Source: Candidatus Eiseniibacteriota bacterium (GTDB taxonomy: Bacteria; Arandabacterota; Arandabacteria; Arandabacterales; Arandabacteraceae). From it: a stretch of 13,152 nucleotides of DNA. The notes beneath the pieces were generated by a model. The model ran no database searches, was not told the DNA's origin, and saw nothing but the letters and a program-made list of their open reading frames with translations. The stretch covers positions 1 through 13,152 of the forward strand of contig JBDRNT010000065.1 of the NCBI GenBank assembly GCA_043810925.1. Direction: 5' to 3'. Made by a program: the position numbers and the translations under genes. Positions 303 through 13,152 of this stretch are shown here, piece after piece. Each line of letters begins with the position of its first letter. The first letter of the stretch is position 1.

Positions 303-429
303 AATTCGGTGAGGACGATTCGGTGACAGTTACCTGATTATCACGTATGTAATTTGGTGACAGTCTGCAAATTGCCGAGTCAGATCTTCCCCGTGGCCGA
401 GCAGATAATTAGTAAGCTGGCACCGAATT
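303..429. repeat. REP/MITE-like palindromic repeat cluster (AATTCGGTGACAGT family), copy 1
   Basis: AATTCGGTGA (303-312), ATTCGGTGACAGTTACCTGATT (318-339), AATTTGGTGACAGTCTGCAAATT (351-373) and the inverted copy AATTAGTAAGCTGGCACCGAATT (407-429). The inverted copy overlaps the arcC stop codon. Confidence 0.7.
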
Positions 430-1387
430 ACTGGGTGAAGTGGGTGCCGGTCTTGCCGAGGAGGGCTTTTTCGATGCTGGGTGGGTCGGTGACAATCGCC
501 TCTTTGCCACCGTGCTCCAGGAACTCGATGATTGCCCGGATCTTTGGCGCCATGCTGCCTTCCGAGAAGTGCCCTCCTCTTGCCAGATACTCTCTGGCCC
601 CGGCAAGCGTCACGCGGTCGAGCGGCTTTTCATCCGGTTGGCCGAAATTGAGATACACCTTCTCGACGGAGGTCGCTATCAAGAGGAGATCCGCCCCTAT
701 CTGCCGCGCAAGAAGCGATGATGTGTAATCCTTATCAATCACCGCAGCGGTGCCCTTGAGGTTGCCCTCCTCATCTGCGACAACGGGAATGCCCCCGCCC
801 CCGCCCGCCACCACTATGATGCCTGCGTCTAAGAGGTTCCTGATTGCCGCTTCCTCCACGATACGGATGGGCTTTGGTGACGGCACGACGCGCCGCCAGC
901 CGCGACCCGCATCCATGCAGACATTCCAACCATCACATTTCCGCCGGCCCTGGGCGACTTCCTCCGTCATGAACACCCCTATCGGTTTCTCCGGATTCTC
1001 GAATGCCGGATCACCGGGATCAACCTCGACCTGGGTGACCACGGTGGCCACAGTCCGTTTCATGCCACGGCGCAGGAACTCATTATAGAGATTCTGCTGC
1101 ACCGCATAACCTATAGAACCCTGAGTGTCGGCGTCGCAGGCATCGAGCGGCACTTCATGCAACTCGTGGGCGGAAAGTTCCGAGCGACGAAGGATGAAAC
1201 CCACCTGGGGACCGTTGCCGTGTGTTATCGCAACGGTCCATCCATGCTCGATCATGTCGGCTATATGAATGCAGGTCTCGTGGGCTGCCGCGTACTGGTC
1301 CTGGACAGTCATGTGCGCCTTGTCCGAGATCAGCGAGTTTCCACCGATTGCGACAACCGCAAGTTTATGTTTGGTGTTGGGAGCCAT
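428..1387 (-). CDS. arcC: carbamate kinase
   Basis: Motifs VVAIGGNSL, ITHGNGPQVG, DTQGSIGY, PEKPIG, DAGRGWRRVVPSPKP, GGGGIPV, AVIDKD and GSMAPKI. ATG at 1387 overlaps the upstream TGA (TGATG, translational coupling); GTG at 1390 is an alternative start. Confidence 0.96.
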   Translation of the reverse strand: MAPNTKHKLAVVAIGGNSLISDKAHMTVQDQYAAAHETCIHIADMIEHGWTVAITHGNGPQVGFILRRSELSAHELHEVPLDACDADTQGSIGYAVQQNLYNEFLRRGMKRTVATVVTQVEVDPGDPAFENPEKPIGVFMTEEVAQGRRKCDGWNVCMDAGRGWRRVVPSPKPIRIVEEAAIRNLLDAGIIVVAGGGGGIPVVADEEGNLKGTAAVIDKDYTSSLLARQIGADLLLIATSVEKVYLNFGQPDEKPLDRVTLAGAREYLARGGHFSEGSMAPKIRAIIEFLEHGGKEAIVTDPPSIEKALLGKTGTHFTQ

Positions 1388-2424
1388 CACTCAGGTTTCT
1401 CGTCTCCCATCGTAAGCGCCATGACGGCCTTCTGGGCGTGAAGCCGGTTCTCCGCCACGTCGTAGATACATGACCTTTCACCACTGGCAACGTCATCGGT
1501 CACCTCGTGCCCCCTGTCGATGGGCATCGGGTGAGTGAAGATCGCATCCTCGGTAAGCGCCATCTTAGCGGTATCACAGATCCAGTCGGTGTATTTCAGG
1601 GCTTTCTCAATCTCTTGTTGCCTCTGAAACTCGCCACCGATGTATGCCTTGGGACTCATCCAGTTACGTGAATACACAACGTGGGCGCCCTTGTAGCCCG
1701 CTTCTGCATCGTTCGTCATCGAAAGCGTCGCTCCGTTGGCTTTGCAGTTCTCGTGGGTCCATCTGATGATTTCCCCGTCGAGATCATACCCCTCAGGAGC
1801 GGCAACCGTGACGTCCATGCCGAAACGGGAACCTATGAGCATGGCCTCCTGGATGCTACACAGCGAACGGGCAAGCGCTCCGTGCCCCCACGTCACCAGG
1901 AGCTTTTTACCCTTGACGGCCGCGGGGTCGAACCCACCACCGGGAGTAAGCCACTCGATCCACCCCATGATGTCGGCCAGTCCCTGGCAGGGATGGAACT
2001 TGTCATGCGCCATCGAAACCACAGGTATGTCGGCCCACTGGGCATACTCGCGGATCAACTCCTCGCCCTCGCCATACGCGCTCACCTTATCTTCGAGAAT
2101 TCTGATCCCCAGACCGCAGGCATATCTGCTCATCACCCTGGCCGCGTCCTCGATGGTCTCCCCCGCAGTGGTCGCCGTCTTCAGACGCATGCTCTTGGGT
2201 TCAAGAAACTGTGCATGTCCCCCGAGCTCTGTTGCCGCACACTCAAAGCTCTGCCGGGTGCGAACCGACGGGTTATAGAAAAACATAAAGAAGGTGCGGT
2301 CCTTAAGGACATTCGTATAGCCGTAACGGTCGCTCTTCATCTTGACGGCCAGATCGAGCGCCGCCAGCAACTCCTCGTGCGACCAGTCCTGGGTCGTAAC
2401 CAGATCGCGTCCCTTTAGAGTCAC
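1387..2424 (-). CDS. ornithine/aspartate carbamoyltransferase-family protein (divergent, knotted AOTCase/YgeW-like); substrate unknown
   Basis: FYNPSVRTR (STRT-type carbamoyl-phosphate motif), HPCQGLAD, HPMP (in place of HCLP) and AENRLHAQKA. Likely start is GTG at 2424 (VTLKGRDL), preceded by GGAGG at the end of the upstream gene, rather than the ORF-track start at 2514. Confidence 0.88.
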   Translation of the reverse strand: MTLKGRDLVTTQDWSHEELLAALDLAVKMKSDRYGYTNVLKDRTFFMFFYNPSVRTRQSFECAATELGGHAQFLEPKSMRLKTATTAGETIEDAARVMSRYACGLGIRILEDKVSAYGEGEELIREYAQWADIPVVSMAHDKFHPCQGLADIMGWIEWLTPGGGFDPAAVKGKKLLVTWGHGALARSLCSIQEAMLIGSRFGMDVTVAAPEGYDLDGEIIRWTHENCKANGATLSMTNDAEAGYKGAHVVYSRNWMSPKAYIGGEFQRQQEIEKALKYTDWICDTAKMALTEDAIFTHPMPIDRGHEVTDDVASGERSCIYDVAENRLHAQKAVMALTMGDEKPE

Positions 2425-2429
2425 GGTTT

Positions 2430-3500
2430 CTATTTCCCTCCCATCAGGAGCGTCATGATCGCCTTGTGCGCATGCAGGCGGTTCTCGGCCTCGTCGAATA
2501 TCGCAGATCTCCACCCGCTCTTGACATCGGTCCTGTCCATAACGTCATTGTTGACTTCGTAGCCGCGGTCCGCCGGCAGGCAGTGCATATAGATCGCTTC
2601 CTGGTCAGCGGTCTCCATCAGCTCGGATGTCATCTTCCAGCTCTTGTACTTGTTGAATATCTCGAGTGTCTTCTCCGGATTGTTCTCACCGACCGGGGGC
2701 GGGAAGATGGGGGTTGCTGCCCAAGCCTTTGGATACACCACATGTGCCCCCTCGAACGCCGATTCGAAGTCGTTTGTGACGCTGAAAGTGGTACGGTTCA
2801 TCCTGGCATTGGCTTCGCACGCGGCCAGAATCTCGGGATCGAGCTCCATCTCCGGAGGATGGGCGAGCACCGTCTCACAACCCATCAGTGACGCGGCGAT
2901 AATGACGCTCTGGGGAACTGCACGGGGCTTATGCACGCTCGGGCTATAGGCCCAGCTCATGACGAACTTGACACCCTTGAAGGTGCCGAACTTCTCTTTG
3001 ACCGTCATCACATCGGCCAGTGCCTGGCATGGATGATACTTATCGCATTCCATATTTATCACGGGAACATCCGACCAGCGGGCGAACTCCTGCATCATCG
3101 CATGGGCACCGCCATACTCCCAGTCCACCGGATCGCCGTAACAGCGGATCGCGATCCCATCACCGGTGCGGCTTAAGACCCTTGCGACGTCTGAGACACG
3201 TTCGGTGATATACGCGATTTCCTTACCCTCAAGCGCGGGCGTGTAGATCTTGGAGGGATCCAGGAAATGGGCGTGCCCGCCGAGCTGTGTCATACCCGCT
3301 TCAAATGTGTTCCGGGTGCGCAGGCTCTGGTTGTAGAAGATCATGAACAGGGTCTGCGCGCGCAACAGATGATCATGGGGCTCGCGCAGTGCGAACCGGC
3401 GCTTGAGATCGAATGCGACATCAAGCATGGTCTCTACCTGTTCCTTGTCCCAGTCCCGCAGGGTCATGTAGTCTTTGCCTCTAAAACTGTCTGTTCTCAT
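2430..3500 (-). CDS. knotted carbamoyltransferase, YgeW-like
   Basis: FYNQSLRTR, HPCQALAD, YMHCLPADRG and EAENRLH. The segment MSWAYSPSVHKPRAVPQS resembles the YgeW-type WAYSPSxxKPxxVPQ proline-rich loop. Confidence 0.9.
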   Translation of the reverse strand: MRTDSFRGKDYMTLRDWDKEQVETMLDVAFDLKRRFALREPHDHLLRAQTLFMIFYNQSLRTRNTFEAGMTQLGGHAHFLDPSKIYTPALEGKEIAYITERVSDVARVLSRTGDGIAIRCYGDPVDWEYGGAHAMMQEFARWSDVPVINMECDKYHPCQALADVMTVKEKFGTFKGVKFVMSWAYSPSVHKPRAVPQSVIIAASLMGCETVLAHPPEMELDPEILAACEANARMNRTTFSVTNDFESAFEGAHVVYPKAWAATPIFPPPVGENNPEKTLEIFNKYKSWKMTSELMETADQEAIYMHCLPADRGYEVNNDVMDRTDVKSGWRSAIFDEAENRLHAHKAIMTLLMGGK

Positions 3501-3616
3501 GATCGATACCCTTTCCGGTTACTCCCGAACTTAAGTTTCTCTCCAGCCGCAGGTCTCCTCCCCGGCGACTGAGTGATCCTCCAGCGTGGTCGCGGGGGGA
3601 TAACTGCAATAAGGTG

Positions 3617-3644
3617 ATTATAATGAACCCCCGTCGGTTGTCAA
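3617..3644 (-). promoter_or_regulatory. consensus sigma70 promoter for the carbamoyltransferase-carbamate kinase operon
   Basis: Minus strand: TTGACA (3644-3639), 16 nt, TATAAT (3622-3617). Both hexamers are perfect consensus. Confidence 0.8.
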
Positions 3645-3690
3645 GACCACCCGGCCATGATAGATCCGACCCACCGGGCGTTCGTACCAT

Positions 3691-3719
3691 TTGATTTCAG
3701 TTTACGACAGTATTAGATT
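3691..3719 (+). promoter_or_regulatory. putative sigma70 promoter for the PLP enzyme gene
   Basis: TTGATT (3691-3696), 17 nt, TAGATT (3714-3719), about 40 nt upstream of the start codon. Confidence 0.5.
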
Positions 3720-3758
3720 CATTTGAGATCAAAGCAGGCTGGAAAGGAGCTGATCCAC

Positions 3759-5225
3759 ATGACCACAAAGGAACAGGTGCTTGAGAACACGGTAAGACGA
3801 TGCAGGGAAAGGGATATCATAATCCCGACCTATGACCAGATGAGAAACCCTGAGAAGGTCCCCCAGGGCATAAAGGACGAGCTTAAGAACGTCGGGCTCT
3901 GGGATCTTCACTCGAGAAACCTCTTCAGGATAACCTGGAAGAACGAGCCGGTGAAGCACGGCGGAGGTTTCGGCGGTGTCAACTTCCTTGAGATCCCCAG
4001 CGAACTCAGTGGTGTTAAGGCGAGGATCATCATCATCCTCGGCAAGTTCTTTCCGACGGGCTCTCATAAGGTGGGTGCAACCTTCGGGCCGCTGGTAGAG
4101 AAACTTGTGCGCGGTGAGTTTGATCCCACGACCCAGAAAGCCCTCTGGCCTTCGACCGGAAACTACTGCCGCGGTGGAGCATACAACTCATATCTCCTGG
4201 GATGTCCGGCAATTGCAGTGCTACCCGAGGGTATGTCGAGGGAACGCTTCGAGTGGCTTGAGAAAGTCGGCTCGGAAATCTATGCCACCCCCGGCAGCGA
4301 AAGCAATGTCAAGGAAGTCTATGATAAGACCCACGAACTTAAGAGTGAAAGACCGGACGAGATAGTTGTCCTCAACCAGTTCGAGCAGATGGGCAATCCC
4401 ATCTGGCACTATGCCGTGACCGGACCCGCACTGGAAGAGGTCTACGAGCAGGAAAAGAAGGGTCAGGCAAGGTTCTCAGGCGTCTTTCTCACCCAGGGCT
4501 CCGCGGGTACGCTTGGATGCACTGACTACCTCAGGAAGAAGTTCCCACTGGTCAAGGTGTGTGCGGGAGAGGCGCAGCAGTGTCCGACTCTTCTCCTGAA
4601 TGGTTTCGGCGCGCACCGTATCGAGGGGATCGGCGATAAGCATGTGCCGTGGGTCCACAACATGAAGAACATGGATATGGTGGCGAGCATAGATGACGAT
4701 CATTGCATCCGGTTGATACGGCTCTTCAACGAACCGGCCGGTAAGAAGTATCTCGCAAAGATGGGTGTCGAGAAGAGCCTGATAGACAATCTCGATCTCT
4801 TCGGCATTTCATCCGTGGCCAACTTGCTCGGCACCATAAAAATGGCCAAATACTATGAGATGAACGAAAACGACATGCTCTTTACGATCGCCACCGACTC
4901 CATGGAACTCTACCAGTCGAGGTTAAAGGAACTCCACGACGAATACGGTGAGTATTCCGAGTTGGATGCGGCAAGGGACTTCGAGCTTTGCCTGGTGGGT
5001 CAGACGTTTGACTGGCTTCTGGAGCTCTCCTACTGGGACAAGAAGCGTATGCACAATCTCAAGTACTTCACATGGATTGAGCAGCAGGGCAAGACCGTGG
5101 AGGAGCTCGATGCCCAGTGGTATGACGATGTCTACTGGAAAGTCCAGCTCAGCTCTTTCAAAGAGTGGGACAGCCGCATAAAGGAGTTTAACGAGCGAAC
5201 CGGTCTCCTCAAGAAGTATCAATGA
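3759..5225 (+). CDS. pyridoxal-5'-phosphate-dependent enzyme, fold type II (cysteine synthase/threonine dehydratase-like superfamily) with long N- and C-terminal extensions
   Basis: FPTGSHKVG (PLP lysine), PSTGNY, VVLNQF, GSAGTLG (phosphate loop) and HRIEGIG. ATG at 3759 follows an AAGGAG RBS. Confidence 0.88.
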   Translation: MTTKEQVLENTVRRCRERDIIIPTYDQMRNPEKVPQGIKDELKNVGLWDLHSRNLFRITWKNEPVKHGGGFGGVNFLEIPSELSGVKARIIIILGKFFPTGSHKVGATFGPLVEKLVRGEFDPTTQKALWPSTGNYCRGGAYNSYLLGCPAIAVLPEGMSRERFEWLEKVGSEIYATPGSESNVKEVYDKTHELKSERPDEIVVLNQFEQMGNPIWHYAVTGPALEEVYEQEKKGQARFSGVFLTQGSAGTLGCTDYLRKKFPLVKVCAGEAQQCPTLLLNGFGAHRIEGIGDKHVPWVHNMKNMDMVASIDDDHCIRLIRLFNEPAGKKYLAKMGVEKSLIDNLDLFGISSVANLLGTIKMAKYYEMNENDMLFTIATDSMELYQSRLKELHDEYGEYSELDAARDFELCLVGQTFDWLLELSYWDKKRMHNLKYFTWIEQQGKTVEELDAQWYDDVYWKVQLSSFKEWDSRIKEFNERTGLLKKYQ

Positions 5226-5407: not shown

Positions 5408-6550
5408 CTAGTGTAGTGTCTCAGTAATACCTTGACAATATCCACTACCCGTGATACAAACGGGATTATGTGGAAACCAACCGATGCTCTCGTGATTACC
5501 TCCGAACAACGAAGAACCCTGGAAGCCTGGGTGCGTGCCAGGACGACACCGCAGCGCGTGGTCCTGCGCTCGCACATCTGTCTACTCGCCGCCGATGGAA
5601 AATCCAACAATGCGATTGCCCATCAATTGGGAACCTCCCGGCCCACCGTTATTCTCTGGCGCAGTCGATTCAAAGAACAGGGCCCCCGGGGCCTGGCCGA
5701 AGATGCACCCCACGGCCCCAGCCCCCAACGTTTGCATGCGGCCAAGATCAAGGAAATCGTAGAAAGAACCTTGCATACCACACCCACCGATGCGACCCAT
5801 TGGAGTACGCGAACGCTGGCCAAAGAACTCAGAGTCAGCCATTCCACGGTCGCGCGGGTTTGGGATGCGCACGGTTTGCAACCTCACCGTGTGAGAACTT
5901 TCAAATTGTCCAGAGATAAACAGTTCGTCGAGAAGCTCACCGATGTCGTGGGACTGTATTTGAACCCACCGGACAAAGCCATGGTGCTTTGTGTAGACGA
6001 GAAGTCCCAGGTTCAGGCCCTGGACCGCACACAACCCGGATTGCCCATGAAAAAGGGTCGCTGTGCAACGATGACCCATGATTACAAGCGCAACGGAACA
6101 ACGTGTTTGTTCGCCGCGCTCAATGTCTTGGACGGTACGGTGATTGGTACCTGTTATCCCCGCCATCGACACGAAGAGTTTCTCAAGTTCCTGCGCAAGG
6201 TTGACCGGGAGGTGCCCAGAACTCTCGATCTCCATCTGATCCTGGACAATTATGGGACGCACAAACATCCGAACGTCAAACGGTGGCTTAAAAAACATCC
6301 GCGCTTTCACTTGCACTTTACCCCAACCAGTTCCTCCTGGCTCAACCTGATCGAACGCTGGTTCGCTGAAATCACTCGCAAGCGGATTCGAAGAGGTGTG
6401 TTCCGAAGCGTTCCTGAACTCATTGCTGCCATCGAAGAATTCATTGAGATCAACAATCAGAATCCAAAACCCTTTACATGGACCAAGAAAGTGGACGAGA
6501 TATTGGAAAAAGTCGGCCATTGTAAAGCCGTTATTGAGACACTACACTAG
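5408..6550 (+). mobile_element. IS630-family insertion sequence, apparently intact
   Basis: Left end CTAGTGTAGTGTCTCAGTAATACCTTGACAAT versus reverse complement of the right end CTAGTGTAGTGTCTCAATAACGGCTTTACAAT. CTAG (containing the TA target typical of IS630) occurs at both ends (5408-5411, 6547-6550). TTGACA-N17-TACAAA lies just inside the left end. Confidence 0.93.
5468..6550 (+). CDS. IS630-family DDE transposase
   Basis: HTH region (SNNAIAHQLGTSRPTV), THWSTRTLA, and catalytic motifs CVDEKSQVQAL, LILDNYGTHK and SSWLNLIERWF. Likely start is ATG 5468. The stop TAG lies in the terminal CTAG. Confidence 0.95.
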   Translation: MWKPTDALVITSEQRRTLEAWVRARTTPQRVVLRSHICLLAADGKSNNAIAHQLGTSRPTVILWRSRFKEQGPRGLAEDAPHGPSPQRLHAAKIKEIVERTLHTTPTDATHWSTRTLAKELRVSHSTVARVWDAHGLQPHRVRTFKLSRDKQFVEKLTDVVGLYLNPPDKAMVLCVDEKSQVQALDRTQPGLPMKKGRCATMTHDYKRNGTTCLFAALNVLDGTVIGTCYPRHRHEEFLKFLRKVDREVPRTLDLHLILDNYGTHKHPNVKRWLKKHPRFHLHFTPTSSSWLNLIERWFAEITRKRIRRGVFRSVPELIAAIEEFIEINNQNPKPFTWTKKVDEILEKVGHCKAVIETLH

Positions 6551-6809: not shown

Positions 6810-7457
6810 TCACTGCTGGCTGTCACTCTCTGGTTCCTCTACGCCGACCAGGGTCCGTGGCAGGAACAAGGCCAGCGCGTTGCCCGCCGCATGCGCCACG
6901 ACGCAGGCCAAGAGCGAGCACCCTAGAACGAGACCTCCCCCCAGGATCGCCCCGTAGCCCATGACGACGAGCGCGCCGCCAAACCCCTTCTCGAAGTGCA
7001 GGAGACCGAACAGAACCGCGCTGATCCCGAGTCCCCAGCCGACGCTCGTGTAGAATGAGACCGCGGAAAGCACCACTCCGCGAAACACGAACTCCTCCAC
7101 CACCGCTGCGCATGCGATAAGGTAGAGCGCGGTTGCCATCTCTCCGTGGTTCGGCCTCCACTCCTCACGGGAGACGACGGCTCCCTTCGCGAAGAGGCGC
7201 TGGATGCCCATTGTCCAGGCGACCATGGCCAGGATCATCATGGGAGCAGCCACCGCGTCGAGCGCTCGTACAGAAGCCGCCTTGACCACGATCCACGCGG
7301 TCACCTCCGCCGTGACCCGTGACCGCGACGCCAGGGATTGCGCCCGTTCCGATCCGACCAAGCTGACGACCAGGGCGATCGCCGCCAGCAACCCAATGGT
7401 CTGGTTCACGACAAGCGAGCGAACCGAAGGGGATCTTACTGGTCGTGTGGCGGACAC
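6810..7457 (-). CDS. CPBP family intramembrane glutamic endopeptidase (CAAX protease/Abi family)
   Basis: Several hydrophobic helices and the motifs EEFVFRG, SAVLFGLLH and AHAAGN. GTG start with GAGGAG about 10 nt upstream. Confidence 0.88.
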   Translation of the reverse strand: MSATRPVRSPSVRSLVVNQTIGLLAAIALVVSLVGSERAQSLASRSRVTAEVTAWIVVKAASVRALDAVAAPMMILAMVAWTMGIQRLFAKGAVVSREEWRPNHGEMATALYLIACAAVVEEFVFRGVVLSAVSFYTSVGWGLGISAVLFGLLHFEKGFGGALVVMGYGAILGGGLVLGCSLLACVVAHAAGNALALFLPRTLVGVEEPESDSQQ

Positions 7458-7491: not shown

Positions 7492-7523
7492 AGCCAACTA
7501 CGACGTATGCTGATCCGTATAAC
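7492..7523 (-). other. putative attI-like recombination site, leftward-facing
   Basis: Minus strand GTTATACGGATCAGCATACGTCGTA-GTTGGCT. Matches 18 of 24 nt of the rightward site (7837-7860) and ends in the same AGTTGGC core, about 40 nt before the CPBP start. Confidence 0.55.
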
Positions 7524-7574
7524 GGCGCTTTGTACAGCGCCGGAGCAGTGTAGTACTCAGAGGTTCATACTCCC

Positions 7575-7603
7575 CAAATACATCAGTCTCAAGGGATTGT
7601 CAA
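7575..7603 (-). promoter_or_regulatory. putative Pc-like promoter, leftward
   Basis: TTGACA (7603-7598), 17 nt, TATTTG (7580-7575). Matches 23 of 30 nt of the rightward promoter. The -10 is non-consensus at its last position. Confidence 0.55.
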
Positions 7604-7632
7604 CTTCCTTCCAGCCTTGGTAGTTCTTACAT

Positions 7633-7719
7633 GGTTTCCGCTTAACTCCGGACCTCACGACACTGCTCTGGCTCGTGAGGCGGTTTGTGGCTGGGTGACC
7701 ACGGAGTTAAACTGAAACC
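7633..7719. repeat. central branched inverted repeat between the two promoter/attI modules
   Basis: GGTTTCCGCTTAACTCCG (7633-7650) and CGGAGTTAAACTGAAACC (7702-7719) are complementary at 16 of 18 positions. Inner hairpin CCTCACGA (7653-7660)/TCGTGAGG (7673-7680). Confidence 0.75.
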
Positions 7720-7748
7720 GCCTAACACTCTTCCCGCGAGTAATTGTG

Positions 7749-7777
7749 TTGACAACCGCCTGATTCTGGGGTATTTG
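7749..7777 (+). promoter_or_regulatory. putative cassette promoter (Pc), rightward
   Basis: TTGACA (7749-7754), 17 nt, TATTTG (7772-7777), about 80 nt upstream of the first cassette boundary. Confidence 0.6.
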
Positions 7778-7829
7778 TGGAGAGTATTCAGCAGAGTGTT
7801 AGACGGAAAGAGTGGCCATCTAGAACGTA

Positions 7830-7861
7830 CTTAACAGGATCCGTATAAGCAGCAGTTGGCA
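7830..7861 (+). other. putative attI site heading the cassette array
   Basis: CGTATAA-GCAGCA-GTTGGCA has the same TAA-N6-GTT spacing as attI1 (TAA-AACAAA-GTT). GTTGGCAC (7855-7862) is the exact complement of GTGCCAAC (8289-8296) at the end of cassette 1. No attC-family hairpin precedes it. Confidence 0.7.
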
Positions 7862-7881
7862 CTACGGAAATGGAGGAACAC

Positions 7882-8286
7882 ATGGATTACTCTGAAAGCC
7901 TCGAAGGGATGCCTGGCGATCCGAACGGTCCTGCCTATCGGAAGACTGAGACACGGACCGGTCCTCCTCTCGACTACGTCGCAGAAAAACTCAAACTATC
8001 CTTGGAAGCGCTCCATAGCACAATCCGCGCAATCCAGGAGACGGTTCCAGAGAATCTGCCTCAGCCTCAGGCAGCCATCGGATCGACCTATTCGGTCAAG
8101 CAGGATGCTCTCTTCTCACCCGCATGGGACGCGTTCCGCTGTGGACTTACAGCGTTTCTTGCTTTACAGAATTTCTTGGTTCTTGCGAATGACCAGGGCA
8201 TTTTCGACCGCCTCTTGGGGTATTCGAGGGAGGAGTTCAGGAATTGGCTGGGCAACATAGAAAGAGAAGGTTTAGTCTCCGGGTAG
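7882..8286 (+). CDS. gene cassette 1: hypothetical protein (~134 aa)
   Basis: The ORF fills the interval between the GTTGGCA core and attC1. ATG 7882 follows GGAGG (7872-7876); ATG 7870 is an alternative. No motif recognised. Confidence 0.75.
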   Translation: MDYSESLEGMPGDPNGPAYRKTETRTGPPLDYVAEKLKLSLEALHSTIRAIQETVPENLPQPQAAIGSTYSVKQDALFSPAWDAFRCGLTAFLALQNFLVLANDQGIFDRLLGYSREEFRNWLGNIEREGLVSG

Positions 8287-8289
8287 GTG

Positions 8290-8389
8290 TGCCAACCAGT
8301 GGTTCGAGACGGACTGCCTTGCGGCGTCACGGCTCTTGCAGACGCAATAGCCTTGCCGCCTTGCCCGCCGTTCAGCCACGCCGTTAGAT
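8290..8389 (+). repeat. attC site 1 (100 bp)
   Basis: R'' TGCCAAC (8290-8296), 5 nt, then L'' GTT[C]GA[G]ACGG pairing with CCGTTCAGC, 6 nt, R' GTTAGAT (8383-8389). Shares the internal GCGGCGTCACGGCTCTTGCAGA..GCAATAGCCT..GCCGCCTTGCC sequence with attC2 and, more loosely, attC3. Confidence 0.9.
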
Positions 8390-8403
8390 GACAAGGAAGG
8401 CAT

Positions 8404-9243
8404 ATGAAGTTGCTTCTTATTGTGTCAGTGATGTGTGTGATTGCATCGCCTGCTTTGTCTTACGAGGGTCTGGGCGAGGCTTTCCAGGCGACCAATCGGG
8501 AGGATGCAGTTCAATATATCATTGACAAGTGCCGTCTGGATTGGACGACTGGGTGGCCGACGGGCCACCCTCGCCAATGGAACGACGTCAGGGCCTATGT
8601 CTCACCTAACCGTCGCTACTGCCTGCTAAGCAAAGCAGGAGCGTCCGAGTGGGGTCAGGGCGGGGATGCTGAGTACTGCCTAGTCGGCGTGGATTCCGGG
8701 CCGATTTGGCTGAAGCACGGAACGATTGGCGGTGAACCGGGAGTTTCAGATCACGGGACTGTCGCCATATTCGAGGGGTGGAAGAGTGCCTCTGAGTTGA
8801 GGTATATTCCTGTTGGGCTCCTCATGATCAGCGCCGATGACGACACTTTCTTCACCAGAAGGTGGTCGAACCATATTCCCCGTCCGATTCAGGGGAAGCG
8901 CTTGTCCGAGAGCTACGGATTCAGTCTCGACGGTCGCTTCTTCATCGTTACAATGAACGTCGCAGATCCTGATGAAGACACTCCGCGGGCCAGCGGATAC
9001 AACAATACCATGTTGCATTGCATCGATCTTGAGGAAGGATCTGAGCGAGTCGAGGATCTGGGCCACTTCTGGCCCAAGACGCACGAGATTACTGACAAGG
9101 GTGCTGAGCTCACTGGGGAGTGGCAGCGCATTCTCAGCACACATGGCTCGTATGACTATGGATTCTACCGCATAACTTGGTCACCGTGGCAGGTTGAGAA
9201 GATTGTCGTTGGTACCAGAGACTTGGGCGAAGTTAGCCGCTAG
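8404..9243 (+). CDS. gene cassette 2: exported hypothetical protein (279 aa), probably beta-rich
   Basis: Signal peptide MKLLLIVSVMCVIASPALS and an AAGGAAGG RBS. Cassette ends GTTAGATGAC (8383-8392) and GTCATCTAAC (9243-9252) are perfectly complementary. VSPNRRY and FSLDGRF resemble beta-propeller blade motifs (inference). Confidence 0.85.
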   Translation: MKLLLIVSVMCVIASPALSYEGLGEAFQATNREDAVQYIIDKCRLDWTTGWPTGHPRQWNDVRAYVSPNRRYCLLSKAGASEWGQGGDAEYCLVGVDSGPIWLKHGTIGGEPGVSDHGTVAIFEGWKSASELRYIPVGLLMISADDDTFFTRRWSNHIPRPIQGKRLSESYGFSLDGRFFIVTMNVADPDEDTPRASGYNNTMLHCIDLEEGSERVEDLGHFWPKTHEITDKGAELTGEWQRILSTHGSYDYGFYRITWSPWQVEKIVVGTRDLGEVSR

Positions 9244-9245
9244 TC

Positions 9246-9253
9246 ATCTAACC
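9246..9253 (+). repeat. attC site 2, left fragment (R'' box), separated from the rest by the IS
   Basis: ATCTAAC (9246-9252) lies 2 nt after the cassette 2 stop. Joining it to 10836 onward restores ATCTAACCAGTGG..., matching attC1 TGCCAACCAGTGG.... Confidence 0.85.
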
Positions 9254-9327
9254 CCTATGAGGCCTACCCGAGTCAAGCGCAAAAACGCCCGCGTTAAGCT
9301 GGCGGGGTAGCCGGCTTTGTCTTTTCA

Positions 9328-9741
9328 TCAAGACCGAACGACCTGACTTAGTTTCACATCTGGCGGTGTGGGCAGATGCTGTCCCACACAAACCCCTATA
9401 CAAGGTTCAGGGCTCCGTGAAAGGAGCCTGCGAAGGTGGTGAGCCTTCGCGCCCTAGAAACACATCGGATCCCTCTTAGTGTCCCAGTCAAACGACGGGC
9501 TGCACGGGTGAGCATGCGCCAGTTAGTTTTGGGCTCACGTGAGGGGCAGGACAGGTCAGTCTTGACCGATATGTCATGTCGGAGCGGAGCGGCCATCCAA
9601 TCCAGCGCGAGAGGCTGCCTGAGATAAGCCAAGTAGCGCAGGCATGGTCTTATCCACAAGCATTTTGGCACATCGCATCTACCTAGCAGGCTTCTCACGA
9701 GACGGCTCCAGTTAGACGTGTGGCTTGACCGCTCCCTCCGA
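9328..9741 (-). ncRNA. candidate bridge RNA/seekRNA of the IS110/IS1111 element
   Basis: Non-coding region 3' of the transposase with two closed domains: 9579-9741 (TCGGAGCGGAGCGG/CCGCTCCCTCCGA) and 9328-9565 (TCAAGAC/GTCTTGA, GACCTG/CAGGTC). Internal hairpins at 9366-9389, 9408-9430 and 9430-9450. Contains short matches to the donor junction and to the attC target. Confidence 0.65.
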
Positions 9742-9742
9742 G

Positions 9743-10753
9743 TCAATTGCTAAGGAATCGTTTCATGTCGAATGCCCTTTGTCTGAGGAGCACGAAGTAG
9801 ACAGCTCTTCCGAGTTTGTGGGCGAGGATGGAAAGTGACTTAGCCTTTCCGTATCTTGCCTGAAGTCTGTTTCGATACTTCATCCCCTCGGAGAATGCCC
9901 ACTTAAGGTGCATGTTCCCGATCTTCCTGCCCGAGGTGCCATACTTCTTGCCGGCGGACTCCTTGGAGCATGCTACGAGCCGGGCATAAGATACGAAGTT
10001 GCTCACTGTAGGGAAGCGCGATATGTCATGAATCTCATACAGGATGGCCAGGGAGAGAATCTTGCCTATGCCGGGTACAGTCTTTAGCAGATAGAGAGAC
10101 TGGGAATCATGGTGCCGGGCGTTCTTCAAGATGAAGAGTTCCAGGCGTTTCATGAGTTGGTCGTAGTGGTCTATGAGTTCCAGGTCAGCGCTGATACTCA
10201 TGCTGACGTCGGGATCGGAGAACTGCTCGGCAACCCCGGCGCGGTGAGTCTTGTAGGCAATCTTCTTGCCGAATGGTGGGAGGTTGTACTGGCTGTTGGT
10301 GTTCTGGATGTGACCTAAGAGATCAGCCCGCCGTCGCATGAGGTAGTGACGTCGTCTGAGGAGATCTCTGGTGGCTCTCATCTCAGGTGGGTAGACATAG
10401 GCCTGGGGTATCATTCCGCCCCTAAGGAGGCCGGCGATCTTTCGGGAGTCTACACGATCGTTTTTGGCCTTCCCTCCATGTATGGCTCTCATGTATAATG
10501 CATGATCGAGGACGAAGGGGATGGTTTCCCTATGACAGAGGTCTGCGAGCCAGTACCAAGCGAACATGCACTCAGCACATACGACGATGTCCTCTCGGTA
10601 AGGCTGGATGACTTCGAGGAAGGCATCTGGCTCGGCGGGGATGTTGCGGTGAAGGACGACGTCTCCGTGGTCGTCGAGGACACAGACGTACATGGACCTG
10701 GTGTGCAGATCGACACCACAATAGAAGAGGTGCTCTTTGGTATAGAATCTCAT
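9743..10753 (-). CDS. IS110-family DEDD recombinase/transposase (possibly carrying a short in-frame deletion)
   Basis: RuvC-like DEDD residues (CGVDLH, VCAECM, AKNDRVDS), LKTVPGIGKI, and ESAGK (catalytic serine region). AAGGAGG RBS upstream. Confidence 0.95.
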   Translation of the reverse strand: MRFYTKEHLFYCGVDLHTRSMYVCVLDDHGDVVLHRNIPAEPDAFLEVIQPYREDIVVCAECMFAWYWLADLCHRETIPFVLDHALYMRAIHGGKAKNDRVDSRKIAGLLRGGMIPQAYVYPPEMRATRDLLRRRHYLMRRRADLLGHIQNTNSQYNLPPFGKKIAYKTHRAGVAEQFSDPDVSMSISADLELIDHYDQLMKRLELFILKNARHHDSQSLYLLKTVPGIGKILSLAILYEIHDISRFPTVSNFVSYARLVACSKESAGKKYGTSGRKIGNMHLKWAFSEGMKYRNRLQARYGKAKSLSILAHKLGRAVYFVLLRQRAFDMKRFLSN

Positions 10754-10835
10754 TGGGGTCTCCTCCTTTCAATGAGATGGGTTACCCCGAGCATACGCTC
10801 GGGAGGCTCCTGAGGGGAGGCCTCAATGAGTATCC

Positions 10836-10926
10836 AGTGGCTTGAGACGGACGGCCGTGCGGCGTCACGGCTCTTGCAGAAGCAATAGCCTCGCCGCCTT
10901 GCCGTCGCCCAGGCACACCGTTATAC
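10836..10926 (+). repeat. attC site 2, right fragment (reconstituted site 99 bp)
   Basis: AGTGGCTTGAGACGGACGGCCGTGCGGCGTCACGGCTCTTGCAGAAGCAATAGCCTCGCCGCCTTGCC...GTTATAC (R' 10920-10926) is closely similar to attC1. Confidence 0.9.
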
Positions 10927-10950
10927 GGTGCAAACACAAATGGAGGGGAA

Positions 10951-11613
10951 GTGAGAAGACTCTTCCGGCCTGGTATTGTGCTTACGGTCCTGTTCGCGTT
11001 GACGGTCCCAGCCAGTGAGGGTCGCGAGCTGAAGGCCGCACTGGCCTTATCAGCTTCGGCCGGATCCGGGATTGCAGGAAGAAAATGGCACTTTCAAGGC
11101 GTGAATGATGTGAGCGTGAGTGCGCCGAAGGCATGCGGCTTGGCCGTTGAATACGGCCCGGTGCAATCTGCGTGTGGCACGGAGCTCTTGTTAATCGTGG
11201 AGGGATCGGTCTTCACTGAAGGAACTAGCGAGACTGAACTGCAGGATCGTCCATTCGGTACCGCCAAACTGGCCATCAATTCAGCGGCAGGCCTAGTATA
11301 CGTTTCCCTTTCGGTACCCAACCGATTAGCCCCTTTCGTGCGACTCGGGCTAGGAGCGGCAAGAGTCCGGTTCGAAGAGACATATTCCGACGCCCGGCTC
11401 AGAGATATTGACATAGATTATTGGGACCTTGCTTATGGGCTCGGCGCCGGCATCCAATATTCGATCACACCAAGGATCAGCATCTCAGCATTCTACGATG
11501 GGATCTACGTCCCCGGTGACCGGCTTAGCCCCAGGAGTAATGGCCTTGAAACGGGGATTCGCACCGGGTGGGGCGCAGAGTGGACCGGACTGAGGGTTCA
11601 CATTCGCCCATAG
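10951..11613 (+). CDS. gene cassette 3: outer-membrane beta-barrel protein (8-stranded OmpA/OmpW-like class)
   Basis: Signal peptide and amphipathic strands APFVRLGLGAARV, LAYGLGAGIQYSITPRISISAFY and TGLRVHI. GGAGG RBS with a GTG start. Cassette ends GTTATAC (10920-10926) and GTATAAC (11619-11625) are complementary. Confidence 0.8.
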   Translation: MRRLFRPGIVLTVLFALTVPASEGRELKAALALSASAGSGIAGRKWHFQGVNDVSVSAPKACGLAVEYGPVQSACGTELLLIVEGSVFTEGTSETELQDRPFGTAKLAINSAAGLVYVSLSVPNRLAPFVRLGLGAARVRFEETYSDARLRDIDIDYWDLAYGLGAGIQYSITPRISISAFYDGIYVPGDRLSPRSNGLETGIRTGWGAEWTGLRVHIRP

Positions 11614-11618
11614 GTATT

Positions 11619-11715
11619 GTATAACTTGTGCATTCAGCGGTCTTGCTGCGGTGTTACGGCTCTGGCAGAACAAGAGCCTCGCCACCTTGCCTGCCGCTGA
11701 CGCGAGACGTTAAGG
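11619..11715 (+). repeat. attC site 3 (97 bp)
   Basis: R'' GTATAAC, 5 nt, CA[T]TCAGCGG ... CCGCTGACG, 6 nt, R' GTTAAGG (11709-11715). Internal GCGGTGTTACGGCTCTGGCAGA..AGCCTCGCCACCTTGCC is related to attC1 and attC2. Confidence 0.88.
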
Positions 11716-11728
11716 GCAAGGTGAGCCG

Positions 11729-12226
11729 ATGGTAGATAAACTGACGGAGAAACGGAAGCGGACGGGTCTGAGACCTTTGCTCGCCATACTCATTGCCACT
11801 GGTGTCGTGGCCGGTTGCTCGGCAGACAAGGGCAGCGGGCCCGAGGCAGTCAACCATCGCCCAACCATCGAGGAGATAGCTGACACGACAGCAGTGGTCG
11901 GAGACACGCTCTACCTACAAGTCACGGCTTCCGACCCAGACGGTGATGACCTGGAGTTCAGCTTGGTTATCCCTTGCAGTTGGTCAGAGATGCAGCAAGG
12001 TCGCTGTCCTATTGCATCTATCAGGTCTGCAGACCTTGTGTTTTGGTTTTGGCCTCGTACGTTCGATCTATCCTTTCGTAGTTTCAGCATAAAGGTGGAC
12101 GACGGTCACGGGGGACGAGATTCTACTGCTTTTGGGGTCGCGGTTTCGTCCTCAGGAGGCTCAGGAGCGACGATCATGCAACAAAAAGTGTGGGCTTTCT
12201 TCGAGAGTGTAAGATATTTTGTGTAA
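11729..12226 (+). CDS. gene cassette 4: lipoprotein with an Ig-like/cadherin-like domain, 3' end replaced by IS256 sequence
   Basis: Basic N-terminus, hydrophobic core and lipobox VVAG-C. NHRPTI, ASDPDGDDLEFS and VDDGHGGRDS fit cadherin-like/Ig repeats. Codons from 12203 on (ESVRYFV*) come from the IS256 IR. Confidence 0.75.
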   Translation: MVDKLTEKRKRTGLRPLLAILIATGVVAGCSADKGSGPEAVNHRPTIEEIADTTAVVGDTLYLQVTASDPDGDDLEFSLVIPCSWSEMQQGRCPIASIRSADLVFWFWPRTFDLSFRSFSIKVDDGHGGRDSTAFGVAVSSSGGSGATIMQQKVWAFFESVRYFV

Positions 12227-13152
12227 ATGGCTATAGTTTATACTCAGACAAAGGAGAGACTCTATGGCCAAGCAAGATCCCACCGACAATCTGCTGGATG
12301 AGCTCCTTGCGGGCAAGACGGCCGAGGAGATCCTCGGTAAGGACGGGCTTCTCGATGATCTGACGAGGCGGCTTGTCAATAGGGCGCTCGAGGGTGAGAT
12401 GACTCACCACCTGGGCTACCCACCTCACTCCCCGGCTGGTCGCCACAGCGGCAACTCCCGCAACGGCAAGACGACGAAGATCGTCAAGGGTAAGACTGGC
12501 GAGATGGAGATCGCCGTTCCTCGTGATCGCAACAGCGCCTTCGAGCCCGAGTTGGTCAAGAAGCACCAGCGCCGGCTTCCCGGGTTTGATGACAAGGTGG
12601 TCGCACTCTATGCGCGAGGCCTTACCACTCGGGAGATCACCGGACATCTTAAGGATCTCTACGGGGTCGACGTATCGCCATCGTTGATCTCGGCGGTGAC
12701 GGACACGGTGATCGAGGATGTGGTGGCCTGGCAGAGCCGTCCTCTGGATGCGGTCTATCCTATAGTCTATCTGGACGCGATCCATCTTAAGATGCGCAGT
12801 GAGGGCCAGGTACGCAACCAGGCTGTCTATCTGGCCCTGGGTATCAACCTGGATGGCGGCAAGGACCTTCTGGGGCTTTGGATCGGCGAGAGCGAGGGCT
12901 CGAAGTTCTGGCTTGGGGTATTGACTGAACTTCAGAACCGGGGGGTTGAGGACATCCTGATCGCCTGTGTGGATGGCCTGAAGGGCTTTCCGGAGGCGAT
13001 CGAGACGGTCTATCCCAAGACTCAGGTTCAGCTCTGTATCATTCACCTGGTGCGTCACTCGCTTCGCTACGTGAGATGGACGGAGCGAAAGCGGGTGGCC
13101 GCTGACCTGCGGTCGATCTACACAGCGGCAACGGCAGAGGCGGCAGAGCAGG
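12203..13152 (+). mobile_element. IS256-family insertion sequence (left end; continues beyond the window)
   Basis: GAGAGTGTAAGATATTTTGTGTAAAT at 12203 has the IS256-family terminal IR pattern and is followed 61 nt later by the transposase. Confidence 0.88.
12264..13152 (+). CDS. IS256-family (Mutator-like) transposase, partial; missing from the ORF track because it has no stop in the window
   Basis: ATG 12264 after AAGGAG reads MAKQDPTDNLLDELL...ALEGEMTHHLGY...NSRNG...VPRDRNSAFEP...LYARGLTTREI...YPIVYLDAIH...ELQNRGVEDILIACVDGLKGF...QLCIIHLVR. Confidence 0.96.
   Translation, partial: MAKQDPTDNLLDELLAGKTAEEILGKDGLLDDLTRRLVNRALEGEMTHHLGYPPHSPAGRHSGNSRNGKTTKIVKGKTGEMEIAVPRDRNSAFEPELVKKHQRRLPGFDDKVVALYARGLTTREITGHLKDLYGVDVSPSLISAVTDTVIEDVVAWQSRPLDAVYPIVYLDAIHLKMRSEGQVRNQAVYLALGINLDGGKDLLGLWIGESEGSKFWLGVLTELQNRGVEDILIACVDGLKGFPEAIETVYPKTQVQLCIIHLVRHSLRYVRWTERKRVAADLRSIYTAATAEAAEQ

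Follow-up and report, generated by a model that had tools for sequence, protein, structure and literature searches.

Integrons are generally taught as platforms with one integrase gene (intI), one attI recombination site, one promoter and one cassette array, and integrase loss is thought to leave headless clusters of attC sites. Such a cluster of attC sites lacking integron-integrase (CALIN) is defined without an attI or cassette-promoter (Pc) head; in Cury et al. 2016 (PMC4889954), integrase loss is proposed as one origin of CALINs, and intI pseudogenes are reported near only 15 of 279 of them. More than one attI per element occurs in the attI1-gene-attI1 and delta-attI-type cassettes of mobile integrons (e.g., attI1-aadB-attI1), for which PMC12901181 describes the duplicated attI as recombination-competent. 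In archaeal integrons (described in a preprint), and in what a review calls the 'inverted integrase group', which relatives of the present locus resemble in layout, intI, attI and array follow in this order on one strand with attI downstream of intI; integrons of that layout also have the crossover G|TT and cassettes ending in attC sites. Here, we analysed a window of 13,152 bp, which is the entire contig C65 of a Candidatus Eiseniibacteriota genome (G000; 3.85 Mb in 185 contigs, 91.7% complete). Its positions 7493–7860 carry an inverted pair of modules, each with a predicted promoter and an attI-like core, which we interpret, with a probability of about 0.62, as the integrase-less remnant of a two-armed integron platform that now probably serves as a bidirectional promoter before a frozen array.

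The window differs from a complete integron in lacking intI, and its right arm shows the G|TT joining of an attI. As in a CALIN, there are three attC sites (8289–8389; 9245.../10825–10926, split by an insertion sequence (IS); and 11619–11715), recognised by R''/R' logic and a family profile hidden Markov model (HMM), as well as four cassettes and no intI on the contig. Unlike the clusters as defined in PMC4889954, however, the locus keeps two heads, and copies of its unit form a graded series of intI decay, whereas pseudogenes are sparse there. The likeness to attI1-gene-attI1 elements lies in the number of attI sites, but in those elements, as described in PMC12901181, the attI copies flank a gene within the array, whereas the window sites are inverted, have their own predicted promoters and flank the integrase position.

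The module that constitutes each arm is approximately 160 nt long and combines a palindrome on its upstream side with GTTGACAA, a weak −10 and GGATC-N12-AGTT. The arms are laid out as follows.

7493..7653, minus strand: left arm, a full-length module (positions 2–162 of R1, a sequence-only module model; 102.2 bits)
Parts of the left arm: upstream palindrome half, 7633–7650; GTTGACAA, 7604–7597; TATTTG, 7580–7575; attI-like core GGATCAGCATACGTCGTAGTTGGC, 7516–7493
7498: G of the putative left-arm crossover
7654..7700: inter-arm spacer of 47 nt, at the site held by the intI gene in the related genome contig G007:C131
7701..7860, plus strand: right arm, likewise a module of full length (101.6 bits), of the kind found 3' of intI in relatives
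Parts of the right arm: upstream block, 7702–7719; GTTGACAA, 7748–7755; TATTTG, 7772–7777; CGTACTT repeat-like site, ~7825–7833; attI core GGATCCGTATAAGCAGCAGTTGGC, 7837–7860
7855 and 7856–7857: G and TT, respectively, of the right-arm crossover
6810..7457, minus strand: CPBP/Rce1-like membrane protease gene (PF02517, 1.1e-13), directly downstream of the left arm

The first-pass annotation of this stretch had placed a mirror symmetry at ~7676, and all of the letters that it quoted are present. A repeat finder located the centre near 7677 and returned inverted blocks at 7570–7604/7748–7782 (the promoter block; 35 nt, 77% complementary) and 7493–7516/7837–7860 (the att-like block; 24 nt, 75%), together with a third block at 7633–7650/7702–7719 (18 nt, 89%, CGGAGTTAAnCnGAAACC) that was absent from that annotation. 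The identities given there hold for both the promoter (23/30, recounted by hand) and the att site (18/24, repeat finder), as do the distances from TTGACA to GTT (106 and 105 nt in the right and left arms, respectively) and from GTT to GTT (357 nt). Conservation is patchy, with low identity outside the functional parts, as had been claimed, and amounts to 58.5% over the 159 aligned positions of the whole arms. Across the 3.85-Mb genome, GGATC-N12-AGTTGGC has two exact matches and GTTGACAA-N15-GTATTTG also has two, all of them in the window arms, so the symmetry is not a product of chance; module copies adjoin intI in relatives, as described below.

A genome of the same genus (G001, 86% complete) carries the same two-armed unit on contig C177, with 84% identity over 370 nt and different flanks. 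Homology with the window is confined to positions 7496–7862 and breaks at the GTT, with unrelated sequence on either side. A chimeric join of two contigs could be suspected in a fragmented, metagenome-type assembly of 185 contigs; yet the arms are just 58% identical, the same arrangement recurs with other flanks in G001 and in several further contigs, and at 7769–7919 the right junction is spanned by contig pieces of a public DNA run, possibly that of the source sample. The recurrence in G001 in particular means that the alternative of an assembly artefact, which the annotation had allowed for, fails and is almost certainly wrong, and the observed inverted module pair is confirmed as real.

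The right arm leads into the following array.

7856..8383, plus strand: cassette 1, a 138-aa protein without a Pfam family (7870–8286) and attC1, matched by the attC family HMM
8384..10920, plus strand: cassette 2, a 279-aa protein without a Pfam family (8404–9243), with its attC split by an IS110-family element
~9253–10832 (approximate ends): IS110-family element with a transposase at 9743–10753 on the minus strand, inserted directly after the attC2 R'' CATCTAAC
10921..11709, plus strand: cassette 3, an outer-membrane beta-barrel protein (10951–11613) and attC3
11710..12230, plus strand: cassette 4 (start only), a 165-aa immunoglobulin-like protein (11729–12226)
12264 to contig end: transposase of an IS256-family element that cuts the array after cassette 4

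In three successive cassettes of the four, the end is exactly complementary to the bases with which the cassette itself starts. Cassette 1 starts with G|TTGGCAC, and its R'' GTGCCAAC at 8289–8296 is the complement of the start GTTGGCAC, followed by the R' GTTAGAT at 8383–8389; cassette 2 starts with G|TTAGATG, and has its R'' at 9245–9252 and the remainder of its attC at 10825–10926, including the R' GTTATAC at 10920–10926; cassette 3 starts with G|TTATAC and ends with the R'' GTATAAC at 11619–11625 and the R' GTTAAGG at 11709–11715. The earlier claim that the right site is tied to a cassette by R'/R'' complementarity with a G|TT junction is therefore borne out, here in three successive cassettes. 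The second half of attC2 (10825–10926) is ~85% like attC1, and the attC family HMM gave six matches in the genome, three of them inside the window. Folding of 9240–9305 as an attC failed (z = 0.4) because attC2 is split by the IS110-family element, an insertion that is reminiscent of the IS1111-attC group, which targets attC sites. The 279-aa protein showed a 29% match to the first right cassette of the G001 unit; apart from that match, the CPBP and cassette proteins had no close relatives in the fetched loci.

The identity of the module was examined in 18 genomes of the phylum, searched with TIGR02249 (cut-off, 265 bits) and with the IntI of G007:C131. Intact intI was present in 5 of the 18 genomes (e.g., 457 and 403 bits against TIGR02249 for G007:C131 and G011:C297, respectively). 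These genomes hold six intI loci, and at every one of them the module profile matched immediately past the intI stop codon, in the orientation of intI. Strong module matches were obtained at G007:C131, G007:C21, G008:C79 and G002:C96, and weak ones at G011:C297 and G006:C244. Among 80 metagenome intI contigs, nine had a module 3' of intI, and all nine IntI were at least 63% identical to the query; several other metagenome contigs with IntI in the same identity range had no module match. These modules are followed by chains of R''-complementary cassettes, up to three to four in number, and at G007:C131, G008:C79 and G002:C96 the cassette next to the module begins at the G|TT junction and has an end complementary to that beginning. 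Across all fetched loci, 50 module copies were collected, of which 11 had no GTT and 6 lay too close to a contig end for the test; an 8-mer complement within 3.5 kb was found for 10 of the remaining 33 with an intact GTT, versus 62 of 991 control GTTRRV positions (6%). The 3' part of the module also contains a direct CGTAGTT-like repeat ~27 nt before the crossover, which we take to resemble the accessory direct repeats of attI1. Because the module adjoins intI in relatives, the evidence that the annotation had named as confirming attI identity, and because cassettes with R''/start complementarity follow, the right arm is a genuine attI heading the array, with a predicted promoter.

As a separate observation at G007:C131 (L027/L049), cassettes 1 and 2 each appear from their translations to encode a toxin-antitoxin pair, with AbrB/SpoVT-like and PIN-like genes.

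An intact intI between two arms is found at G007:C131, where the order along intI is an attI core and a promoter in reverse orientation, an upstream palindrome, TTGACC-17-TAAACT, an intact 373-aa intI, the upstream block, promoter, attI and a toxin-antitoxin cassette. TTGACC-17-TAAACT is likely the integrase promoter (Pint). On the metagenome contig L071, a gene for an 81%-identical IntI is preceded by a divergent module that is 78.6% identical to the left arm of G007 and is cut by the contig end. Other copies show intI in successive states of loss: frameshifted pieces lie between the two arms of G007:C21, and a 43-aa intI C-terminus (...HVLNKGGMGVRSPMDSL), 97.7% identical to the G007 IntI, lies at G000:C112 between the module after it and the inverted module before it. 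The gaps between paired arms were as follows.

G007:C131: 1316 nt, intact intI
G007:C21: 669 nt, degraded intI
G003:C436: ~233 nt, intI 3' stub
G000:C112: 195 nt, intI 3' stub
G007:C37: 157 nt
G007:C8: 146 nt, intI 3' stub
Window, G001:C177 and G011:C256: ~47 nt, no remnant

Since the gaps grade from an intact intI to no remnant, the window is taken to stand at the far end of this series, with intI lost from between its arms, presumably by deletion; its spacer (7654–7700) holds no recognisable intI remnant. The annotation had instead placed the second module in the position of intI, which G007:C131 and L071 contradict, as both have an intact intI between inverted modules and the window would be a deletion derivative of that arrangement. 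Among the metagenome intI loci, 61 extended far enough in both directions to be checked for inverted repeats around intI, and none had them (with G007:C131 positive as a control), so the two-armed layout is rare; in G008, G006 and several contigs, upstream of intI there are only a conserved neighbour gene, the palindrome and the promoter.

Beside the stub at G000:C112 (L005, 1810–2997), a gene for a 321-aa tyrosine recombinase stands directly after the right-arm attI and is followed by what appears by eye to be the start of an IS91-type transposase, that is, an apparent mobile element in the first-cassette position.

No intact integrase was found in the genus. In G000, 0 of 20 TIGR02249 matches exceeded the 265-bit cut-off and tblastn with the G007 IntI returned only the 43-aa stub on C112; in G001, no TIGR02249 match passed the cut-off; and a search with the IntI query P0001 returned nothing in either genome. 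Supply of an integrase in trans, as assumed in the annotation, is thus unsupported, since neither genome of the genus has an intact intI, and with three IS insertions in or at the array, recombination is probably extinct at the locus. These results bear on a second explanation, namely, that the window is an active, two-headed, integrase-less platform in which both attI sites capture cassettes with IntI in trans and attI x attI recombination flips the 357-bp segment. It would account for the GTT and the ATAnGnnGTAGTT context kept by both arm cores, for the wholly different flanks on both sides between two genomes of the same genus, with homology ending at the GTT, and for the R''/start complementarity in the left unit of G001. 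Set against these are the missing integrase, the three IS insertions, one of which lies inside an attC and suggests that turnover has ceased, and the left gene of the window, which has no attC; we therefore regard an active platform as unlikely. Four short contig pieces of the public DNA run (two at 6984–7022 and two over 7769–8052) contained no joint or inversion, at minimal coverage.

The left arm differs from the right in what follows it. Its core GGATCAGCATACGTCGTAGTT keeps the GTT, although the arms are only 58% alike, and the gene after it differs between the window and G001:C177 with homology ending at the GTT; variation of this gene was a point that the annotation had proposed checking between strains. 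In G001, the left unit, which starts with GTTAGGCC (G|TTAGGCC), holds a 123-aa gene preceded by a ribosome-binding site of its own; 447 nt on, directly at the stop codon, the unit ends with GGCCTAAC, the 8-nt complement of its own start. These features suggest that the left arm was used as an attI at some time in this lineage. Of the two outward entry points that had been proposed, the left one thus retains an attI core and heads a cassette-like unit in G001, but the left gene of the window has no attC, and overall the first interpretation of the locus is partly supported.

Module copies are abundant in this phylum. R1 matched 13 of the 18 genomes with ~110 matches at E ≤ 1e-3, including 19 each in G000 and G007, 16 in G001, 11 each in G008 and G013, 10 in G011 and 9 in G002, and nhmmer gave 21 module matches in G000. 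Many copies are decayed, and many lead straight to a ribosome-binding site and a gene. A third explanation therefore deserves consideration, in which the left arm has at no time served as an attI and is one of many dispersed copies kept or exapted simply as a strong, portable promoter and leader, with the pairing as a by-product of platforms landing or decaying head to head. It is in line with the low number of cassettes with an 8-mer complement in G000 (after 2 of the 14 module sites examined, C65+ and C45−), with the loss of GTT and retention of the promoter in 11 of the 50 copies, with the direct run of most copies into a ribosome-binding site and gene, with the assignment of the two arms to different subfamilies, and with IntI fragments directly upstream of 'solitary' modules. 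Such fragments were detected by tblastn at L060, L066 and, weakly, L063, and others were read in the DNA; some solitary copies accordingly look like relics of intI-linked heads. Nevertheless, the left core and GTT are intact in both the window and G001 despite the 58% likeness of the arms, which points to constraint on the site itself; the left GTT is also exactly where homology breaks off, and the left unit of G001 carries the complement. We consider this explanation unlikely.

The phylogeny of the 50 copies clarifies how the pair did not arise. Left arms do not form one clade; the left arm of the window clusters with those of G001:C177 and G000:C94 (SH-aLRT 99; Shimodaira–Hasegawa-like approximate likelihood ratio test) near the modules 3' of G008/G002-type intI, and the right arm of the window belongs to another subfamily. 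Because the arms fall in different subfamilies, the pair is not an in-place inverted duplication, and the annotation's view of an old inverted duplication gives way to one of different module lineages set back to back. The same pair of a left-type and a right-type arm occurs in at least four places in the genus (C65 and C94 of G000; C177 and C65 of G001).

Two further copies in G000 merit description. At G000:C45 (49020–49130; L018 ~5051–5130), a shortened module with its −10 region fused directly to GGTAGTT heads a cassette with an 8-mer complement 284 nt on, and a window-family attC lies at C45:48671–48757. At G000:C94 (~63476–64914), the minus-strand arm is followed by a 478-aa gene, of which an 81%-identical DNA copy adjoins the C23 pair (3201–4639), so the arm and gene of C94/C23 were apparently copied or captured together.

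Returning to the remnant reading, each arm would be one module, consisting of an upstream palindrome, an outward TTGACA promoter and an attI (CGTAGTT-like repeat, GGATC, ATAAGCCGTA and G|TT). The right arm would be the attI and Pc of the four-cassette array, and the left arm a second, inverted module of another sub-lineage that may now drive the CPBP protease gene; the intI between them would have been deleted down to 47 nt. At present, the locus would most likely act only as a bidirectional promoter ahead of a frozen, IS-riddled array, and recombination would resume only on arrival of an IntI of this lineage. With regard to the promoters, GTTGACAA is nearly invariant in the 50 aligned module copies and is followed by a TA-rich hexamer 17 nt later, giving two outward candidate promoters with a perfect −35 and a −10 (TATTTG) that has 3/6 matches and is weak by the E. 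coli standard, each ~100 nt upstream of a first gene (the CPBP gene start has the spacing GGAG, 11 nt, GTG). Both arms are thus predicted to have promoter activity, with the left one driving the CPBP protease and the right one the first cassettes.

Several observations weigh against this reading. A consensus promoter scan called neither arm promoter, and the different subfamilies of the arms are explained equally well by two platforms of one head each that came to lie head to head and by a designed two-armed unit. At G007:C131, the left arm reaches the contig edge, and no left array is seen beside the intact intI. For the left gene of the window, both reading and searching yielded no attC and no complement of GTTGGCTG within 3.5–5 kb. 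The sole positive left-arm case, in G001, is a single 8-mer in an attC without a clear R', and the R''/start test is strand-symmetric, so that the leftward reading is favoured by gene orientation only. Finally, G000 and G001 are 92% and 86% complete, respectively, so an intI might be unassembled.

A fourth explanation starts from the shape of the unit. The window unit resembles an attC in having xxxxAAC, a long imperfect inverted repeat and GTTxxxx on one strand, a likeness that is possibly formal only: attC sites measure 57–141 nt, whereas this unit spans 365 nt (1.6 kb with intI), and no L boxes or extrahelical bases were identified in it. It also resembles IS elements and miniature inverted-repeat transposable elements (MITEs), with a recombinase gene between inverted ends, internally deleted copies outnumbering intact ones and many copies per genome, but differs from them in its integron-type tyrosine recombinase, in single arms being commoner than pairs and in that neither a target-site duplication nor an empty site turned up. 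The two-armed unit might itself be mobile and be moved as a whole by IntI, with the arms as terminal inverted repeats or, on single-stranded DNA, as a giant attC hairpin (with an xxxxAAC/GTTxxxx base) and intI-less pairs as MITE-like derivatives. Pairs of the same arm types at the four or more places in the genus, a conserved unit bounded exactly by both GTTs, and agreement of the bases after GTT between arms in four of five pairs (GGC/GGC, AGG/AGG, GAAC/GAAC and AGG/AGG, versus ATG/GGG) are compatible with such mobility, as is the minimum-energy fold of the single strand, one long hairpin closed by GCCAACT/AGTTGGC (−58.5 kcal/mol, z = −2.2). Any inverted repeat would fold in this way, however, and the agreement after GTT is marginal given the strong GTTRRRY consensus (rough estimate, p ~0.03). 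Inverted tyrosine-recombinase sites yield inversion, not excision, and a single flank search for an empty site of the C94 pair retrieved paralogous flanking genes and no empty site, and reading of the window flanks revealed no direct target duplication. Mobility of the unit is accordingly considered very unlikely. A broader version, in which the integron of one IntI lineage of this phylum has become a self-propagating two-headed element, with intI between inverted Pc-attI arms feeding divergent arrays and IntI moving the whole platform or an intI-less miniature via a giant attC-like hairpin on single-stranded DNA, is quite unlikely; if true, it would account for platform relics numbering dozens in each genome and for the bases after GTT agreeing between arms.

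The literature search, whose incomplete coverage is no proof of absence, returned no description of an intI flanked by inverted attI-promoter modules, of a double head left without its integrase or of any integron from this phylum. In the lineage documented here, the integrase lies between two inverted promoter-attI heads, a decay series leads from there to an integrase-less double head, and the integron head has multiplied to ~10–20 matches in each of several genomes, all from an uncultured phylum that has been little studied. Should cassettes be captured at both heads, a single integrase would serve a pair of arrays oppositely oriented to replication, which bears directly on current work that links the orientation of an array with the stability of its cassettes; should the heads spread autonomously, integron platforms could act as mobile promoters.

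The upstream palindrome, of the type GTTAAGCGG-AAA-CCGCATAAC, precedes both Pint and Pc at G007:C131 and also stands before Pint in G008 and G006, which suggests either a regulator common to these promoters or an accessory site for IntI. Control by LexA in the SOS response was considered and rejected, because the palindrome is unlike those upstream of both lexA genes in the genome. The latter palindromes (CCGAACAATTGTTTGG and CTGCACATTTGTGCAG, upstream of the genes at G000:C122 14651 and G000:C12 50433) lie just downstream of a CTTGACTA motif, suggesting two distinct SOS-type operators in one organism. The block GGAAACCGCATAAC is likewise found upstream of the likely intI promoter in the single-headed integrons L044 (G008:C79) and L046 (G006:C244), after a neighbour gene conserved across both genera. 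Concerning leader structure, RNAalifold predicted 0 pairs on the 50 module copies, a column-wise pairing scan of the copies found only short helices of conserved words, and no Rfam match was obtained for the whole window up to an E of 1. A possible helix joining the GAGTGTTA region to the TAACAGG region, with covariation between subfamilies apparent by eye, could not be established.

The remainder of the window, left of the CPBP gene, contains the following features according to the Pfam scan.

428–5225: carbamate kinase, two carbamoyltransferases and a PLP (pyridoxal phosphate) enzyme
~5412–6550: IS630-family copy (transposase, 5432–6550)

The two carbamoyltransferase paralogues are neighbours and lie beside the carbamate kinase (428–3500), an arrangement that resembles a catabolic carbamoyl-phosphate pathway and is unconnected to the arms. 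The IS630 copy has the ends TAGTGTAGTGTCTCA.../...TGAGACACTACACTA at a TA, and since four other G000 contigs (C110, C9, C116 and C48) carry almost the same ends at their edges, this element probably breaks the assembly.

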